Shown here: positions 9,003 to 14,535 of the stretch, one piece after another
Position numbering within the stretch: position 1 is the first letter of the stretch
Layout of the letters: each line of letters starts with the position of its first letter
Virus record (IMG/VR): IMGVR_UViG_2713897161_000003
DNA from: a virus
Lineage: Duplodnaviria > Heunggongvirae > Uroviricota > Caudoviricetes
Reading direction: 5' to 3' (one strand)
Length of the DNA: 14,535 bases
Position numbers and translations under genes: made by a program
The notes under the pieces: generated by a model
Databases searched by the model: none
What the model was told of the DNA's origin: nothing
What the model saw: only the letters and a program-made list of their open reading frames with translations

Positions 9003-9104
9003 ATTGCATCGTCTCCAGCATATATATCAATTAAGGCTCTGATTGATGTGTCTGAAAGCCTACACATAATAACTATGCCATCCGTTCCGTGCGGAGGTGA
9101 GGCT

Positions 9105-9320
9105 ATGAAATCCATGGACAAAATTTCAACAGGCATTGCCTACGGCACCTCCGCAGGCAGTGCTGGCTACTGGTTTTTACAGTTGCTCGATAGAGTAACT
9201 CCGTCACAGTGGGCTGCAATCGGTGTGCTGGGTAGTCTGGTATTTGGCCTGCTGACGTACCTGACAAACCTTTATTTCAAGATTAAAGAAGATAAGCGCA
9301 AGGCTGCGAGAGGTGAATAA
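9105..9320 (+). CDS. Class II holin of the phage 21 S (pinholin) family, 71 aa, with dual-start motif
   Basis: [71 protein letters not shown] resembles S21/EssD as recalled. The Met1-Lys-Ser-Met4 arrangement fits the antiholin/holin dual start. GGAGGTGAGG precedes the ATG at 9105. Confidence 0.9.
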
Positions 9321-9817
9321 TGCCTCCATCATTACGAAAAGTCGTTGCTGCTGCTATTGGTGGCGGAGCAATTGCTATAGCATCAGTGTTAATCACTGGC
9401 CCAAGTGGTAACGATGGTCTGGAAGGTGTCAGCTACATACCATACAAAGATATTGTTGGTGTATGGACTGTATGTCACGGGCATACAGGAAAAGACATCA
9501 TGCTCGGTAAAACGTATACCAAAGCAGAATGCAAAACACTCTTGAATAAAGACCTTGCCACGGTCGCCAGACAAATTAACCCGTACATCAAAGTCGATAT
9601 ACCGGAAACAACGCGCGGCGCTCTTTACTCATTCGTTTACAACGTGGGTGCTGGCAATTTCAGAACATCGACGCTTCTTCGCAAAATAAACCAGGGCGAT
9701 ATCAAAGGCGCATGTGATCAGCTACGTCGCTGGACATATGCTGGCGGTAAGCAATGGAAAGGTCTCATGACTCGTCGTGAGATTGAGCGTGAAATCTGTT
9801 TGTGGGGTCAGCAATGA
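9320..9817 (+). CDS. SAR endolysin (lysozyme, R21/RrrD-like), 165 aa
   Basis: N-terminal Gly/Ala-rich signal-anchor-release segment ([21 protein letters not shown]) followed by a lysozyme-like domain. Start overlaps the holin stop (TAATG). Confidence 0.92.
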
Positions 9818-10278
9818 ACAGAGTAACCGCGATTATCTCCGCTCTGGTTATCTGCATCGTCGTCTGCCTGTCATGGGGTGTTAATCATTACCGTGATAAC
9901 GCCATCGCCTACAAAGAACAGCGCGACAAAAATGCCAGAGAACTGAAGCTGGCGAACGCGGCAATTACTGACATGCAGATGCGTCAGCGTGATGTTGCTG
10001 CGCTCGATGCAAAATACACGAAGGAGTTAGCTGATGCGAAAGCTGAAAATGATGTTCTGCGTGATGATGTTGCCGCTGGTCGTCGTCGGTTGCACATCAA
10101 AGCAGTCTGTCAGTCAGTGCGTGAAGCCACCACCGCCTCCGGCGTGGATAATGCAGCCTCCCCCCGACTGGCAGACACCGCTGAACGGGATTATTTCACC
10201 CTCCGGGAACGACTGGTAATGATGCAGGCCCAACTTGAAGGTGCTCAGCAATACATAACCGAGCAGTGTTTAAAGTAA
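9814..10278 (+). CDS. Rz-type i-spanin, 154 aa from the ATG at 9814; the ORF track gives a GTG alternative at 9802
   Basis: N-terminal transmembrane helix then a coiled-coil-like periplasmic domain. The ATG overlaps the endolysin stop (ATGA). Resembles RzpD as recalled. Confidence 0.88.
10034..10219 (+). CDS. Rz1-type o-spanin lipoprotein, 61 aa, embedded in the +1 frame of Rz
   Basis: Lipobox LVVVGC and a proline-rich mature region ([15 protein letters not shown]), entirely nested within Rz. Shine-Dalgarno AAGGAG lies 7 nt upstream. Confidence 0.88.
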
Positions 10279-10415
10279 AATCTTAACTACAATATGATTC
10301 ATTTTGATGATTGTTTCATAAGGAACAGTGAAGTAAGATCTAAGAGGAGTTAAATTTTATACAGTATAATCATAATATTGCAGCAAGGTGGTTATAATTG
10401 AAAGAATATTTAGAT

Positions 10416-11873
10416 ATGAATACATCTCATGTAAGAGTTGTTACTCATATGTGTGGGTTCCTGGTTTGGCTCTATAGTCTTTCAATGTTGCCACCAATGG
10501 TTGTAGCATTGTTTTATAAAGAAAAAAGCCTGTTCGTTTTCTTTATAACTTTCGTTATATTTTTTTGCATTGGTGGCGGAGCGTGGTATACAACTAAGAA
10601 ATCTGGCATTCAATTACGTACCCGTGATGGGTTTATTATAATTGTAATGTTTTGGATTTTGTTTTCTGTTATTAGTGCATTCCCTTTATGGATTGACTCA
10701 GAACTTAATTTAACGTTCATTGATGCTCTGTTTGAAGGGGTTTCTGGAATAACAACAACAGGAGCAACTGTAATTGATGATGTTAGTTCATTACCTCGGG
10801 CATATTTGTACTATCGGTCACAGTTAAATTTTATAGGTGGTTTAGGAGTTATTGTTCTGGCGGTTGCTGTATTGCCATTATTGGGTATTGGTGGTGCAAA
10901 GCTTTATCAGTCAGAAATGCCGGGGCCATTTAAGGATGACAAACTCACTCCCCGCCTGGCCGATACGTCACGGACACTGTGGATAACTTATTCTTTATTA
11001 GGTATTGCTTGTATTGTCTGTTATAGACTTGCAGGAATGCCTTTGTTTGATGCTATTTGTCACGGGATTTCCACAGTTTCGCTTGGTGGTTTCTCAACTC
11101 ATAGCGAGAGTATCGGATATTTTAATAACTATTTGGTTGAGCTGGTGGCTGGTTCTTTTTCCCTGCTATCGGCTTTCAACTTCACTCTTTGGTATATTGT
11201 TATTAGCAGGAAAACGATAAAACTTTTAATCAGAGATATTGAACTTCGTTTCTTTCTGTTAATAGCCTTAGGGGTGATCATTGTTACCTCTTTCCAGGTC
11301 TGGCATATAGGTATGTATGACTTGCATGGAAGTTTTATTCATTCGTTTTTTCTTGCCAGCTCCATGCTCACTGATAATGGTTTAGCTACGCAGGATTATG
11401 CAAGTTGGCCCACGCACACGATAGTGTTTTTGCTGTTGTCAAGTTTCTTTGGGGGATGTATAGGTTCAACTTGTGGTGGAATTAAGTCACTTCGATTTCT
11501 TATACTTTTCAAACAAAGCAAACACGAGATAAATCAGCTTTCTCATCCCAGAGCGTTGTTGAGTGTAAATGTAGGAGGGAAGATAGTTACAGATCGTGTA
11601 ATGAGGTCTGTATGGAGTTTCTTTTTTCTTTATACTCTCTTCACGGTGTTTTTTATACTGGTGTTAAATGGTATGGGATATGATTTTCTTACATCATTTG
11701 CAACAGTGGCTGCATGTATTAATAATATGGGATTAGGTTTTGGGGCTACTGCATCGTCATTCGGAGTGCTTAATGACATTGCAAAATGTTTAATGTGCAT
11801 AGCTATGATTCTTGGTCGCCTTGAAATTTATCCTGTTATTATATTGTTTTCAGGTTTTTTTTGGCGCTCCTAA
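10416..11873 (+). CDS. trkG: TrkG/TrkH-family potassium uptake protein, 485 aa from the ATG at 10416
   Basis: Polytopic membrane protein recognised as the Rac-prophage TrkG (MNTSHVRVVTHMCGFLVWLYSLSMLPPMVVALFYKEKS...). The gene is markedly AT-rich relative to its neighbours. The ORF-track start at 10398 is TTG. Confidence 0.92.
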   Translation: MNTSHVRVVTHMCGFLVWLYSLSMLPPMVVALFYKEKSLFVFFITFVIFFCIGGGAWYTTKKSGIQLRTRDGFIIIVMFWILFSVISAFPLWIDSELNLTFIDALFEGVSGITTTGATVIDDVSSLPRAYLYYRSQLNFIGGLGVIVLAVAVLPLLGIGGAKLYQSEMPGPFKDDKLTPRLADTSRTLWITYSLLGIACIVCYRLAGMPLFDAICHGISTVSLGGFSTHSESIGYFNNYLVELVAGSFSLLSAFNFTLWYIVISRKTIKLLIRDIELRFFLLIALGVIIVTSFQVWHIGMYDLHGSFIHSFFLASSMLTDNGLATQDYASWPTHTIVFLLLSSFFGGCIGSTCGGIKSLRFLILFKQSKHEINQLSHPRALLSVNVGGKIVTDRVMRSVWSFFFLYTLFTVFFILVLNGMGYDFLTSFATVAACINNMGLGFGATASSFGVLNDIAKCLMCIAMILGRLEIYPVIILFSGFFWRS

Positions 11874-12035
11874 TATATGGCTGATTTATAATTGTGAGTT
11901 TAATATTATGTTGACTCACTCATTGATCCAATACCTAACTTTACCAGCAACCCCTCCGTCCCCAGTAGCACTGGCTGCTGGGGTGCGTTTTATTCATAAA
12001 GCAAGGCTGTATGAGCGAGAAATTAAAGATAGTCT

Positions 12036-12542
12036 ATGCGTGGCTGGATGATTAAGGGCAAGCCCGCCAGTGATCGAGCCGTATTGTCTCAGGAACAGGA
12101 CGGCATTAAATCACACACCCACAGCGCCAGCGTATCCAGTACGGATTTGGGGACGAAAACCACATCGTCGTTTGATTACGGCACTAAATCCACGAATAAC
12201 ACTGGTGCGCATACCCATAGTGTTAGCGGTACGGCTGCTTCAGCCGGTGCACATACCCATTCGATGACATTTGTTTCAGGTGGTTCCAGTGGTGCTCCGG
12301 GAAGTGGAGCATCTGATTATTCTAAATACAGTGTTAACACTTCTTCTGCAGGCGCTCATACGCACTCTGTATCGGGTACTGCTGCAAGCGCAGGTGCACA
12401 CGCACATACTGTGGGTATTGGTGCTCATACGCACTCGGTTGCGATTGGCTCACATGGACACACCATCACCGTTAACGCTGCTGGTAACGCGGAAAACACC
12501 GTCAAAAACATCGCATTTAACTATATTGTGAGGCTTGCATAA
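12036..12542 (+). CDS. Side-tail-fibre C-terminal tip fragment (Stf-like), 168 aa, His-rich repeats
   Basis: Multiple stops lie in-frame just upstream, so the ORF is not fused to any fibre shaft. Seven HxH motifs (mostly GAHTHS) sit in Gly/Ser/Thr-rich sequence. Stop overlaps the tfa start (TAATG). Confidence 0.7.
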
Positions 12543-13117
12543 TGGTATTCAGAATGAGTGAACAACCACGGACCATAACAATTTATAATCTGCTGGCCGG
12601 AACTAATGAATTTATTGGTGAAGGTGATGCATATATTCCGCCTCATACAGGTCTGCCAGCAAACAGTACCGATATTGCACCGCCAGATATTCCGGCAGGC
12701 TTCGTGGCTGTTTTCAACAGTGATGAGGCATCGTGGCATCTCGTTGAAGATCATCGGGGTAAAACGGTTTATGACGTGGCTTCCGGCGACGCGTTATTTA
12801 TTTCTGAACTCGGTCCGTTACCGGAAAATGTTACCTGGTTATCGCCGGAAGGGGAGTTTCAGAAGTGGAACGGCACAGCCTGGGTGAAGGATACGGAAGC
12901 AGAAAAACTGTTCCGGATCCGGGAGGCGGAAGAAACAAAAAACAACCTGATGCAGGTAGCCAGTGAGCATATTGCGCCGCTTCAGGATGCTGCAGATCTG
13001 GAAATTGCAACGGAGGAAGAAATCTCGTTGCTGGAAGCATGGAAAAAGTATCGGGTATTGCTGAACCGTGTTGATACGTCAACTTCACAGGATATTGAAT
13101 GGCCAGCACTGCCGTAG
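12542..13117 (+). CDS. tfa: Tail fibre assembly protein, 191 aa
   Basis: Resembles TfaR/TfaQ of E. coli cryptic prophages as recalled ([73 protein letters not shown]). Translationally coupled to the fibre-tip ORF. Confidence 0.9.
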
Positions 13118-13214
13118 GGTAAAACATATAAATTCTATAATTAGATGTATCTTTCCATTTACGGCAAGGAAGGGGGCTTGGAAGACGTAAAGCATCTCAC
13201 ACCGAGATTATTTT

Positions 13215-13805
13215 TTATATGTCAGGTGTCTGAAGTTTTGCTTTGGCTCTTAAAATGGTTTGCCGCGAGGTTTTGAATTCCCGGGCAATGGCACTTATAC
13301 TTACACCTGACTTAATTCGTTCGAATACCACCTGTTTCTGTTCTTCATTTAACACAGGTGGTCGACCAAAACGTTTCCCTGCGCCGCGGGCTCTTACTAT
13401 CCCGGAATGAGTGCGTTCAAGTAAAAGGTCTCGTTCAAATTCAGCGACTGCTGAAATTACTTGCATCATCATTTTTCCTGTTGGACTGGTCAGGTCAATG
13501 CCCCCCAATGCTAAGCAATGCACTCTGATACCTGTTTCGGTCAGTTGTTCCACTGTTTTCCTGATATCCATTGCATTACAACCAAGGCGATCCAGTTTTG
13601 TCACAATCAATTGATCACCACATTTCAGGCGAGCAAGCAACCGGTTAAAACCAGGACGCTCACTGGTTGCTGCTGAGCCACTAATGTGTTCTTCGATTAT
13701 TTGCTGAGGTTTGATTTTAAAACCTGCACTTTCGATTTCCCGGCGTTGATTTTCGGTGGTCTGATCCAGCGTTGATATCCGACAGTAAGCAAAAATTTGA
13801 GACAT
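13215..13805 (-). CDS. pin: Serine-recombinase DNA invertase of the Pin/Gin/Hin family, 196 aa
   Basis: N-terminal catalytic motif [10 protein letters not shown] (active-site Ser), resolvase-type domain and C-terminal helix-turn-helix. Convergent with tfa. Confidence 0.95.
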
Positions 13806-14121
13806 AGTGAGACTCTATACGAAATTGGTGTTCATATCATAATGCATCTCAGAAAATAATTATGATTATTTTTGTGCATATTTGTATGTACACGTTCGAA
13901 AATAAACGAATGCGTATGCAACCCCGTAATTTTGGTGAGACCCAAAATCGATTTTGTGAAAAATGGCTTTAACTCGGTTTGTTTTTCGAGTTCCGGGCGG
14001 ACTCAAGGAAGAAGAATAGTGTTGCGTGTTATTTTAACCAGATTTCAAGTTGTTTGGTCGTGGAAAAATGGAGCAAAATGTTGTTAAAGTGGAAAAATGA
14101 TAAAAAAGTAAGTTTATTATA

Positions 14122-14355
14122 TTACATTTTACCATTTAAATTTTGGTTGTCTTTAAGAACTGATATCGCTGTTTGTAATAATTCTTTGTTATCCAGCCAT
14201 GATTTTTTCTTTATGTTTCCTTCAATGTAATCAAGCAATGTTCTGGTATTGATAGGTCTTCCCTGTTTTGCTACTTCCACTACAGCATCCCCTAGGATAA
14301 TTCTTACTTCAGGAAGCTGCGCAGGGAACCACTTTAGGGTGTCTTTTGATTTCAT
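14122..14355 (-). CDS. YdfK/YnaE-family prophage protein (cold-shock-associated), 77 aa from the internal Met
   Basis: MKSKDTLKWFPAQLPEVRIILGDAVVEVAKQGRPINTRTLLDYIEGNIKK.SWLDNKELLQTAISVLKDNQNLNGKM matches the 77-aa YdfK/YnaE paralogs as recalled. AAGGAA lies 7 nt upstream of this ATG. The ORF-track start at 14433 is a likely over-extension. Confidence 0.75.
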   Translation of the reverse strand: MKSKDTLKWFPAQLPEVRIILGDAVVEVAKQGRPINTRTLLDYIEGNIKKKSWLDNKELLQTAISVLKDNQNLNGKM

Positions 14356-14406
14356 GAAGATATTCCTTAAAATATTATTGATTTTCATTGCGATATTGTA
14401 TGTCTG

Positions 14407-14535
14407 TGGATTTGCCCCTATATTTCCAGACACCTGTTATCACTTAACCCATTACTGGCCTGCTGCCGCAGATATTCCCGTGGCGAGCGATAACCCAGTG
14501 CACTATGCGGATGCCATTCGTTATAATGCTCGAAC
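14407..14535 (-). mobile_element. IS2 element end (terminal inverted repeat plus C-terminal codons of transposase InsD); element continues beyond the window
   Basis: TGGATTTGCCCCTATATTTCCAGACACCTGTTATCACTTAACC matches the IS2 right inverted repeat as recalled. The minus-strand translation of 14418-14534 ([38 protein letters not shown]) matches the InsD C-terminus, with stop at 14418-14420. Confidence 0.85.

Follow-up and report, generated by a model that had tools for sequence, protein, structure and literature searches.

The region downstream of trkG in the analysed window (the whole 14,535-nt stretch of DNA) most probably represents a decayed end of a Rac prophage, in which a tail fibre stub was left behind by a deletion and the neighbouring pinR gene is a crippled relic of a Tn3-family resolvase, not a component of a fibre switch (probability about 0.8).

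Identity and gene order of the locus

Judged by its sequence, the window belongs to a lambdoid prophage of E. coli of the Rac type, of which it forms the right end in a decayed state. The whole locus was 100% identical to that of E. coli MB19, with trkG, a tail-protein pseudogene, tfaR, pinR, ydfK and uspF, and its synteny and position (trkG ... tfaR-pinR-ydfK/ynaE-ynaM ... uspF-ompN) were those of Rac. The genes found here are all annotated in public genomes, the stub is already flagged as a pseudogene and the decay is of the kind ordinary for prophages. Three open reading frames listed in the initial annotation were confirmed at 12036-12542 (+, 168 aa), 12542-13117 (+, 191 aa) and 13215-13805 (-, 196 aa), and the ORF layout bore out its observations that pin is convergent with tfa and that only a single stf-tip/tfa pair is present. 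The stretch 11874-12035 turned out to be no fibre DNA but the trkG-ynaK spacer followed by the first 25 nt of ynaK. The ydfK/ynaE neighbour of pin was also found in K-12 Rac and Qin, and in phage 2H10 a 77-aa ORF occupies the same place. The features of the region were as follows:

11874-12010 (+): trkG-ynaK intergenic spacer of Rac, collinear with the spacer of strain LR-64-1, in which ynaK is kept
11924-11949: first weak crossover-like site, within the trkG-ynaK spacer, 6/20 mismatches (chance level)
12011-12055 (+): beginning of ynaK, comprising the start codon and the first 8 codons, which is joined to stfR out of frame and yields a 14-codon ORF overlapping the stub ATG
12035-12037 (+): deletion junction, with the 'TAT' microhomology common to ynaK and stfR
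12036-12542 (+): stub formed by the 3' remnant of stfR, a side tail fibre gene, with 168 codons and a stop
12542-13117 (+): tfaR, full-length tail fibre assembly chaperone gene (Caudo_TAP, E 2.2e-42)
13169-13206 (-): probable relic of the right 38-bp terminal inverted repeat, 25/38 match to GGGGTCCGCTTGGAAAACGGAAAATATCCCACGCTAAG
13215-13805 (-): pinR, small serine recombinase gene, probably of TnpR (resolvase) ancestry, with Resolvase and HTH_7 domains
13806-13930 (-): degraded res-like region upstream of pinR, aligned to the transposon tnpA-tnpR intergenic region
13893-13901, 13847-13855 and 13816-13824: surviving res half-sites
13892-13865: promoter-like -35/-10 pair within the res-like region
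13968-14005 (-): weak candidate for a relic of the left terminal repeat, 24/38 match
14122-14355 (-): ydfK/ynaE cold-shock gene, a conserved pin neighbour, assigned from the annotation of the identical genome

Relationship of PinR to Tn3-family resolvases

The initial annotation treated Pin as an invertase of the Hin/Gin/Pin type belonging to a collapsed two-cassette switch, but the kin of PinR proved to be the TnpR proteins of the Tn3 family. PinR shared 36% identity with Gin and 38% with PinE, compared with 79% between Gin and PinE, and did not cluster with the Hin/Gin/Cin/PinE invertases. Its gene was 82% identical at the nucleotide level, and the protein 84% identical, to tnpR of an intact Tn3-family transposon. 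The relatives of PinR with 78-84% identity were encoded divergently from a 994-aa Tn3-family transposase (NF033527, 1193 bits with a cut-off of 500) over a 159-160-bp spacer in 12 of the 14 places examined, in Escherichia, Hafnia and Shewanella. PinR thus shows the high identity to a TnpR beside a Tn3-family transposase by which a TnpR module is recognised. Among the NCBIfam models, it fell below every curated family cut-off.

The transposon is 3815 bp long, with the gene order tnpA - res - tnpR and perfect 38-bp end repeats (GGGGTCCGC...CTAAG), and it was found on E. coli plasmids, in Hafnia and in Shewanella. The Hafnia TnpR was about 78% identical to PinR, and the end repeats of the Hafnia copy were not recovered. 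No tnpA was present in the window, where ydfK lies about 315 bp upstream of pinR instead, and the element must therefore be regarded as a relic, not as a transposon.

The homology was not confined to the gene, as positions 13176-13885 of the window were 82% identical to transposon DNA including the upstream res region and the repeat. The search for the 38-bp terminal inverted repeats (GGGG...TAAG) of the Tn3-family transposon identified a probable relic of the right repeat, which begins 8 nt after the pinR stop codon and directly adjoins the tnpR homology. Comparison of four independent transposon copies showed that they start to diverge from one another exactly at the outer end of this repeat. 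The candidate for the left repeat has the expected orientation and position and is conserved in K-12 Rac, Qin and phage 2H10; since the best unrelated match in the window reached 23/38, this 24/38 match is only suggestive. The res region of the transposon contains dyads of the TGTCCGAAA type, of which the window retains the right halves only, each matching at 7/9 positions.

The arrangement is best explained if pinR was once the tnpR gene of a compact transposon of the Tn3 family, inserted downstream of tfa in an ancestor of the phage lineage. The transposase would have been lost later, with part of res upstream of the gene and the right end repeat past its stop codon remaining. The end repeat and res suggest a transfer in the direction from the transposon to the phage. 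A resolvase origin would also account for pin being convergent with tfa, for the missing second fibre cassette and for the lack of gix-like sites.

Cysteine in place of a catalytic arginine

The description of pin as apparently intact held for the length of the ORF, but not for the active site, in which Cys76 replaces a catalytic Arg of serine recombinases. Codon 76 (13578-13580), corresponding to the R71 position of Tn3 resolvase, is TGT in the window, in K-12 pinR, in K-12 pinQ and in phage 2H10, and CGT in the transposon. Among the 120 nearest protein clusters, 112 have Arg at the corresponding position. From the catalytic set in Tn3 numbering (Y6, R8, S10, D36, R68 and R71), which is incomplete in PinR, Y7, R9, S11 and R73 were found, with E39 standing for D36 throughout the PinR/TnpR clade. 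R71 is one of six residues whose mutation abolishes recombination by Tn3 resolvase, and for the R71A and R71K variants no detectable recombination and an about 1000-fold lower cleavage were reported (PMC2794168).

Decay within a cryptic prophage was considered as a source of Cys76 and rejected, because the same codon occurs in the complete phage genome 2H10. Ten further phage records carried a Pin with 98.5-99.5% identity. Thousands of sequences carry the Cys76 allele as a full-length ORF with hardly any variation, and the dN/dS between two Cys76 lineages was 0.36, which suggests that some function is still under selection. Given Cys76 and the loss of one half-site from each res dyad, PinR would be at best a weak recombinase. 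Its likeliest remaining activity may be the predicted binding to the res remnant that overlaps its own promoter, resulting in autoregulation.

Possible action of PinR on the e14 P segment

The suggestion that Pin acts elsewhere in trans gained published support for PinQ, which is 99% identical to PinR, acting on the P segment of e14. Kirigo et al. (NAR 2025) observed that overproduced PinQ lifted the P-segment inversion from about 30% to about 88%, that this effect needed stfP, stfE and e14, that deletion of pinQ sensitised the cells to T2 and that pinQ/pinR were induced 14-fold by T2; inversions were found in e14 only (PMC12529663). PinR could accordingly be an active recombinase in trans, inverting the e14 P segment, with the resulting chimeric StfE2 blocking T2 adsorption. 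The experiments with PinQ speak for such a role, as do the purifying selection acting to some degree on the ORF and the content of the closest complete genome, MB19, in which an e14-like prophage includes a P-like segment alongside pinE and mcrA.

Such activity is nevertheless unlikely. The Arg essential to recombination by Tn3 resolvase is the residue missing from PinR, and deletion of pinE locks the P segment even though pinQ and pinR are present (PMC12529663). The inverted fraction of 88% also exceeds the roughly 50:50 equilibrium (49%) of PinE (PMC12529663), so that selection or an indirect effect would explain it no worse than direct catalysis. Moreover, the ancestral sites of PinR would be res dyads of the type described above, unlike pix (TTCTCCCAAACC...), and its helix-turn-helix region differs from that of Gin and PinE. 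Any effect of PinR on the e14 P segment is more likely to be indirect than catalytic; if the PinQ effect is direct after all, Cys76 would not be inactivating.

A related reading, to which a still lower probability is given, is that PinR and PinQ are a domesticated resolvase devoid of the catalytic Arg but still controlling inversion at a site foreign to it, the e14 P segment, and by way of this T2 resistance. Such control could be exerted by partnering or biasing PinE, by DNA-binding regulation, or by a chemistry that tolerates Cys at the R71 position. If this were true, a non-canonical mechanism would underlie the 'recombinase-activated defence' described in print, and the 'Pin' that is widespread in Rac and Qin would have to be seen as a regulator derived from a resolvase, not as an invertase.

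PinR as a putative multimer resolvase

PinR might also work as a resolvase for phage or prophage multimers, acting at the res region that precedes pinR. Rac, Qin and phage genomes have kept the gene together with the res-like region, and one plasmid context contains a homologue of 84% identity that has the same upstream region but no transposase, which indicates that the gene and the site might form a stand-alone resolution module there. The function is improbable for the gene studied here, which encodes the Cys76 variant and is preceded by dyads that have each lost one half-site. The homology additionally fades inside the outermost dyad, taken as the crossover site (site I) by analogy with the res of Tn3/gamma-delta. 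Lambdoid phages are not known to require a multimer resolution system of this kind.

Origin and properties of the fibre stub

The stub was identical at 164 of its 168 positions to residues 908-1075 of an intact 1075-aa Stf, and it is labelled by PGAP as 'phage tail protein, incomplete, missing N-terminus' (pseudogene). Direct reading of the junction sequences placed the end of the ynaK homology at 12037 and the beginning of the stfR homology at 12035. In comparison with K-12 Rac, about 6.5 kb are missing, from ynaK codon 9 to approximately codon 949 of stfR. The deletion, via the 3 bp of microhomology, linked codon 9 of ynaK with a Met codon in the interior of stfR, and the part left over is the last 168 fibre codons, corresponding to a gp37-like iron-binding needle with a truncated collar. 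The ATG that had been credited to the tip ORF as its own is this internal stfR codon (...IPDMRGW...) laid bare by the deletion. Of 5426 complete E. coli genomes, 4 contained the exact ynaK/stfR junction, which, being so rare, looks like a recent accident and not like a selected form. A Pin-mediated deletion as the origin of the stub was rejected, since the junction consists of the 3-bp ynaK/stfR microhomology and bears no resemblance to a recombination site.

An in-frame TAG stop is located at 12030-12032, one codon upstream of the stub ATG, and a terminator-like hairpin was identified further upstream, at 11960-11983, with a stem of 10 pairs, of which 7 are GC, and a run of T after it. From this hairpin to the stub ATG, the + strand showed no promoter-like site, and the ATG is preceded by no recognisable ribosome-binding site. 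We infer that the stub is most likely a silent pseudogene, with translational coupling to the 14-codon ynaK ORF being conceivable. The adjoining tfaR gene is annotated as intact in the identical genome MB19, and its product was identical to K-12 TfaR at 186 of 191 positions. NCBIfam gave no matches for the stub or TfaR.

The stub contains exactly the seven HxH motifs that had been counted before (residues 27, 59, 73, 108, 122, 131 and 140), and the similarity to T4 gp37 suggested for them proved right, as all seven were column-matched to the gp37 tip crystal fragment 2XGF. The alignment with 2XGF covered the full ORF length with an E of 4.7e-54 and 110 of 170 columns identical, so a solved structure 65% identical to the stub exists. 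The fold is that of an interdigitated trimer, about which a monomer model would tell little. The least similar stretch of the gp37 alignment comprised the loops of the distal tip, at about residues 75-105 in the stub, from which a receptor specificity different from that of T4 gp37 may be expected. The needle (D11) was retained completely and the collar (D10) partially. In gp37, the D10 collar is formed by residues 811-881 and 1010-1026, and the stub begins inside it, at the equivalent of residue 858, which leaves it without about two thirds of the N-terminal collar part into which the needle is inserted. A Pfam search of the stub detected Phage_fiber only, with no Collar match. The stub thus has a needle of the gp37 type, but neither a complete collar nor an attachment to the fibre shaft.

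The initial annotation proposed that the tip may still fold as an autonomous receptor-binding module, a view weakened by these data. Expression of the 168-aa tip, folded with TfaR, as an autonomous receptor-binding or decoy module would be favoured by the preservation of the whole needle with all seven metal-site motifs next to an intact chaperone gene, and T4 gp37 fragments 785-1026 and 799-1026 do trimerise when co-expressed with chaperones. It is very unlikely, however, in the case of a deletion remnant that lacks the equivalent of gp37 collar residues 811-857, would have to be translated from an internal codon that follows a terminator-like hairpin and lacks a recognisable ribosome-binding site, is called a pseudogene by PGAP and has its junction in only those four genomes.

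Search for an inversion switch

The earlier failure to find a clean crossover site was reproduced, since a consensus scan of the whole window for gix/hix/pix sites gave 0 matches at ≤3 mismatches; in the e14 control of the same scan, both pix sites were found at 1 mismatch. The best matches in the window had 5/20 mismatches, which equals the level of shuffled sequences (best typically 5-6). The two weak sites suggested previously had 6 and 9 mismatches at the 20 specified positions and were rejected. The second of them (13155-13180) overlaps the outer end of the Tn3-family terminal-repeat relic. A half-site scan of the whole window revealed nothing above chance, and the search for inverted repeats between 9000 and 14535 yielded just short pairs of low identity, unrelated to gene boundaries. 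The Fis-dependent enhancer of the invertases, made up of two Fis sites about 48 bp apart in the 5' part of the gene, was sought with a degenerate Fis-consensus scan, a method of low specificity that finds such pairs in 10-18% of shuffles. In gin and pinE alike, it detected a pair at about nt 89/137, a position without a pair in pinR, where the only one was at 183/230.

Among complete E. coli genomes, the tfa-pin junction was intact in 2674 of 2701 records and the pin-ydfK junction in 2776 of 2802. No inversion isomers were indicated at either of them, both being fixed in about 99% of roughly 2700 genomes. The complete genomes of phages 2H10 and Kati have one stf-tfa set and a convergent pin, as in the window, so that the single cassette looks like the standing layout of the lineage and not like the result of a collapse. 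Missing crossover sites and a substituted catalytic residue, the two findings which the initial annotation had itself named as arguing against a working switch, were thus both encountered.

A collapsed switch of the Mu/P1/e14 type, in which one of two stf-tip/tfa sets and the crossover sites were lost and an orphan invertase was left, would agree with the position of pin next to stf/tfa, as in the case of gin, cin and pinE, and with Gin as the best solved-structure match of PinR (E 2.5e-29 versus 2.5e-22 for gamma-delta resolvase), but it is largely refuted and hardly credible in view of the low identity to Gin and PinE with transposon tnpR genes as the nearest relatives, the res and end-repeat relics kept in the window, the orientation of pin opposite to that in Mu and e14, the lack of crossover sites, the single-cassette phage genomes and the fixed junctions. 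Most likely, a fibre-flipping switch never existed here.

Implications

PinR and PinQ have been named and treated as invertases of the P-segment type, also in the 2025 paper that gives them an anti-phage role, whereas by sequence and context they appear to be relics of Tn3-family resolvases with Cys at the catalytic arginine. The Cys76 finding therefore bears on the claimed trans action of PinQ (PMC12529663). In the literature searched, no mention was found of the resolvase ancestry or of Cys76 of PinR/PinQ. For automated annotation, the locus is a caution that a pin gene next to a tail fibre gene does not by itself mean an inversion switch.

Comparison with known systems

In K-12 Rac (stfR-tfaR-pinR-ynaE), the genes, their order and orientation are all as in the window. 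Its PinR differs by 1 residue, and the TGT codon of Cys76, the res remnant and the end-repeat relics are alike. K-12 Rac retains the full 1120-aa stfR as well as ynaK, ydaY, ynaA and lomR::IS5, which the window does not, whereas the window, unlike K-12 Rac, has intact S-R-Rz lysis genes on the upstream side of trkG. In K-12 Qin (nohA/stfQ-tfaQ-pinQ-ydfK), a truncated stf (320 aa) also abuts unrelated DNA and is followed by tfa, a convergent pin and ydfK, with PinQ likewise carrying Cys76. The truncation lies at another point, the upstream partner is nohA in Qin and ynaK in the window, the Qin stub is longer and the fibre tips are not the same, with 136 of 185 aligned positions identical.

Residues 858-1026 of T4 gp37 were aligned to the stub over its whole length, with the HxH motifs of the iron sites in register. 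Just as gp37 has its chaperone gp38, the stub has a fibre-assembly chaperone gene directly after it; unlike gp37, the stub is a remnant within a prophage and does not form part of a fibre.

The Hin/Gin/Cin/PinE systems share with the window a small serine recombinase with Resolvase and HTH_7 domains, encoded next to tail-fibre and chaperone genes. They also possess 26-bp crossover sites and a second cassette, neither of which occurs in the window, and in Mu G and e14 P the 5' end of the invertase gene faces the invertible segment, whereas pinR shows its 3' end to tfa. With the Tn3-family transposon, in turn, the window shares homologous counterparts of the res region and the right end repeat, placed at the same distances from the gene.

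Gene content of the region

By comparison with K-12, the region was assigned to the right end of prophage Rac. The ORF listing and Pfam searches confirmed the three ORFs of the initial annotation, lying between trkG and a cold-shock gene.

Features of the region (window coordinates; strand where recorded)
9048–9320: essD, holin, lysis cassette
9320–9817: rrrD, lysozyme, lysis cassette
9802–10278: Rz, lysis cassette
10034–10219: embedded Rz1-like lipoprotein ORF, lysis cassette
10398–11873: trkG, upstream of the three-gene set
12036–12542 (+): 168-aa ORF with Pfam Phage_fiber repeat, 3' end of stfR
12542–13117 (+): tfaR, tail-fibre assembly protein, 191 aa (Caudo_TAP, E 2e-42)
13215–13805 (-): pinR, convergent serine recombinase, 196 aa (Pfam Resolvase and HTH_7)
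14122–14355 (-): ydfK/ynaE cold-shock gene, downstream of the three-gene set

The region is a case of ordinary prophage decay, combining a rare stfR deletion stub, an intact tfaR and a Tn3-family transposon relic. The single tip and tfa set convergent with a recombinase gene was a real observation, whereas most of its interpretation as an orphan Pin-type fibre switch found no support. The 2.5 kb around the set were 100% identical in four complete E. coli genomes; in MB19, the closest one, the annotated order was essD, rrrD, Rz, trkG, 'phage tail protein (incomplete, missing N-terminus)', tfaR, pinR, ydfK, ynaM, uspF and ompN. The window diverged from the otherwise identical MB19 exactly at 14406/14407, which places an insertion sequence about 50 bp upstream of ydfK/ynaE in this strain. 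The remaining 14407–14535 segment was the end of a multicopy IS3-family element, matching 19132 places in 4357 genomes annotated as 'IS3 family transposase'. The lysis cassette upstream of trkG (9048–10278) appeared intact, whereas the K-12 Rac lysis region has kept only the rzpR pseudogene and rzoR.

Probable origin of PinR from a Tn3-family transposon

The e14 invertase PinE was 79% identical to Gin, but PinR showed only 38% identity to PinE and 36% to Gin. Judged by these alignments, PinR is not a Pin-type invertase, contrary to the initial premise, and its nearest kin outside the Rac/Qin group were transposon tnpR products. The genomic context was checked for these closest non-Rac/Qin protein clusters (77–84% identical to PinR), and at 12 of 14 places examined the PinR relative was divergent from a gene for a 994-aa Tn3-family transposase (NCBIfam NF033527, 1193 bits, cut-off 500), with a 159–160-bp spacer. 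The hosts of these tnpA-linked relatives were Escherichia plasmids, Hafnia and Shewanella. The transposon was 3815 bp long with perfect 38-bp terminal repeats (GGGGTCCGCTTGGAAAACGGAAAATATCCCACGCTAAG) and multicopy within single Shewanella genomes; the retrieved copies (L009, 2823–6637, and L022–L024) carried tnpA, res and tnpR only. Identical 38-bp end repeats occurred on virulence or colicin plasmids of E. coli and, at several copies per genome, in Shewanella baltica, implying recent mobility across orders.

Window positions 13176–13885 showed 82% nucleotide identity to the transposon. The match opens about 80 bp 5' of the start codon, takes in the entire gene (84% amino acid identity to TnpR) and continues past the stop as far as the end repeat. 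Four independent transposon copies parted from each other exactly at the outer end of this repeat, and the window homology reached the same point. The right end-repeat relic (13169–13206, 25/38 matching) begins 8 nt after the stop codon in window and transposon alike; it overlaps one of the two weak crossover-site resemblances noted initially (13155–13180). A candidate left-end relic at 13968–14005 (24/38 versus noise of 23/38) was only suggestive. The gene long annotated as pinR is the tnpR of a Tn3-family transposon relic, and the transfer presumably proceeded from transposon to phage.

Upstream of tnpR, the transposon contained TGTCCGAAA-type half-site dyads at -115/-98 and -75/-52 and one single half-site match at -21. 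The res remnant of the window retained right-hand half-sites only (7/9 each), and by this measure the res region is degraded. A promoter-like site overlapped the remnant, which agrees with the position of the tnpR promoter inside res in Tn3-type elements. PinR may bind there and regulate its own expression.

The region shows no inversion switch

A gix/pix consensus was built from the crossover sites read in Mu (G segment) and e14 (P segment). It recovered both e14 pix sites with one mismatch and gave no match in the window at up to three mismatches, in line with the initial failure to find a clean site. The best matches in the window had 5/20 mismatches, the same as in shuffled sequence, and the other weak resemblance (11924–11949) had six and lay inside the trkG–ynaK spacer. 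An inverted-repeat search gave nothing meaningful. Records of complete E. coli genomes were collinear across the tfa|pin junction in 2674 cases out of 2701 and across pin|ydfK in 2776 out of 2802, with no inversion isomers. Eleven phage records encoded a Pin 98.5–99.5% identical to that of the window; the two inspected, 2H10 and Kati, had J-lom-stf-tfa followed by convergent pin and no second fibre cassette. With the fixed junctions, this layout indicates that a single cassette is the standing arrangement of the lineage and not, as had been proposed, a switch collapsed to one orientation.

Activity of PinR and action in trans

The alignment of PinR to Gin and to the gamma-delta and Tn3 resolvases showed conservation of Y7, R9, S11, R50, D72 and R73. 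The KLDRLGR motif reads KLDRLGC in PinR, which puts Cys76 at the position of Tn3/gamma-delta R71. For Tn3 resolvase R71A and R71K, recombination was undetectable and cleavage about 1000-fold reduced (PMC2794168). Codon 76 was TGT in the window, K-12 pinR and pinQ, phage 2H10 and one more divergent E. coli allele, and CGT in the transposon and one prophage copy, the latter apparently a product of conversion by the transposon gene. Among the 120 nearest clusters the position was Arg in 112 and Cys in 5. PinR and the transposon TnpR had a dN/dS of 0.16, and the comparison of two Cys76 alleles gave 0.36; selection on PinR looks relaxed yet not absent. Catalysis by PinR is probably lost or weak. 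A prophage pin at the ynaE-pin-tfa position in E. coli GCA_910593615 (locus L015, 5001–5591) was near-identical to the transposon tnpR (dS 0.04) and encoded Arg76. Its upstream region was a prophage/transposon hybrid, and the locus looks as if a transposon copy and the prophage relic had undergone gene conversion.

Action in trans has experimental backing: overproduced PinQ, the Qin counterpart 99% identical to PinR, is reported to drive e14 P-segment inversion, leading to StfE2 and blocked T2 adsorption (Kirigo et al. NAR 2025, PMC12529663). A serious alternative to direct catalysis is that the PinQ effect is indirect or PinE-dependent. Deletion of pinE locks the P segment with pinQ and pinR intact, and the inverted fraction was 88% with PinQ overproduction versus 49% with PinE (PMC12529663); joined with Cys76 and the resolvase ancestry, these results make the alternative a serious one, and an indirect or selective effect explains them no worse than direct catalysis by a protein carrying Cys76. 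The BLAST survey in the same paper found inversions in e14 only and none in Rac or Qin, and the paper mentions neither Tn3 nor catalytic residues (PMC12529663). A literature search on PinR together with Tn3 or tnpR returned nothing relevant. MB19 carries a full-length e14-like prophage at icd (L017, 14900–19000; chromosome 4334.9–4339 kb) with pinE, mcrA and a P-like segment, so the trans model is testable in this lineage. The fibre and chaperone genes of this segment were annotated as frameshifted fragments, which may be assembly errors or real decay.

The fibre stub is a deletion remnant

In LR-64-1, trkG and the same spacer as in the window are followed by ynaK (ATGAGCGAGAAATTAAAGATAGTCTATCGCCC...). 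The intact fibre gene reads ...ATCCCTGATATGCGTGGCTGGACG... at the corresponding site, and the window reads ...AAAGATAGTCTATGCGTGGCTGG... across the junction. The ynaK homology stops at 12037 and the stfR homology starts at 12035, with only 'TAT' common to both; the stub is the product of an illegitimate deletion mediated by this microhomology, which removed about 6.5 kb compared with K-12. This junction makes the ATG at 12036, initially taken as the start of a free-standing tip ORF, an internal Met of stfR (...IPDMRGW...), with an in-frame TAG one codon upstream (12030–12032). A 14-codon ORF overlapping this ATG now begins with the ynaK start codon (12011). A terminator-like hairpin just 3' of trkG (11960–11983; 10 pairs, 7 GC, T run), probably the trkG terminator, sets the stub apart from upstream transcription, and no promoter-like site was found between the hairpin and the stub region. 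The stub is presumably silent.

The stub corresponded to residues 908–1075 of a 1075-aa fibre (164/168 identical) and aligned full-length to the crystallised T4 gp37 tip (2XGF, E 4.7e-54), with 110 of 170 columns identical. The likeness to gp37 noted initially was correct, as all seven HxH motifs each fell on one of gp37's seven. In gp37 these motifs serve as ligands of seven iron atoms along the needle (PMC6957217); an explanation for the repeats already exists. The gp37 tip comprises the D10 collar (811–881 and 1010–1026) and, inserted into it, the D11 needle (882–1009) (PMC6957217). The stub starts at the equivalent of residue 858, so the whole needle is kept and the N-terminal collar segment has lost roughly two thirds of its length, consistent with the lack of a Pfam Collar match in the stub. 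The needle of the suggested autonomous tip module is complete, but with this collar loss autonomous folding would be less likely than supposed.

The exact ynaK/stfR junction occurred in 4 of 5426 complete genomes, and other strains carried different truncations. The Qin prophage of K-12, with its 320-aa stfQ stub, has the same arrangement.
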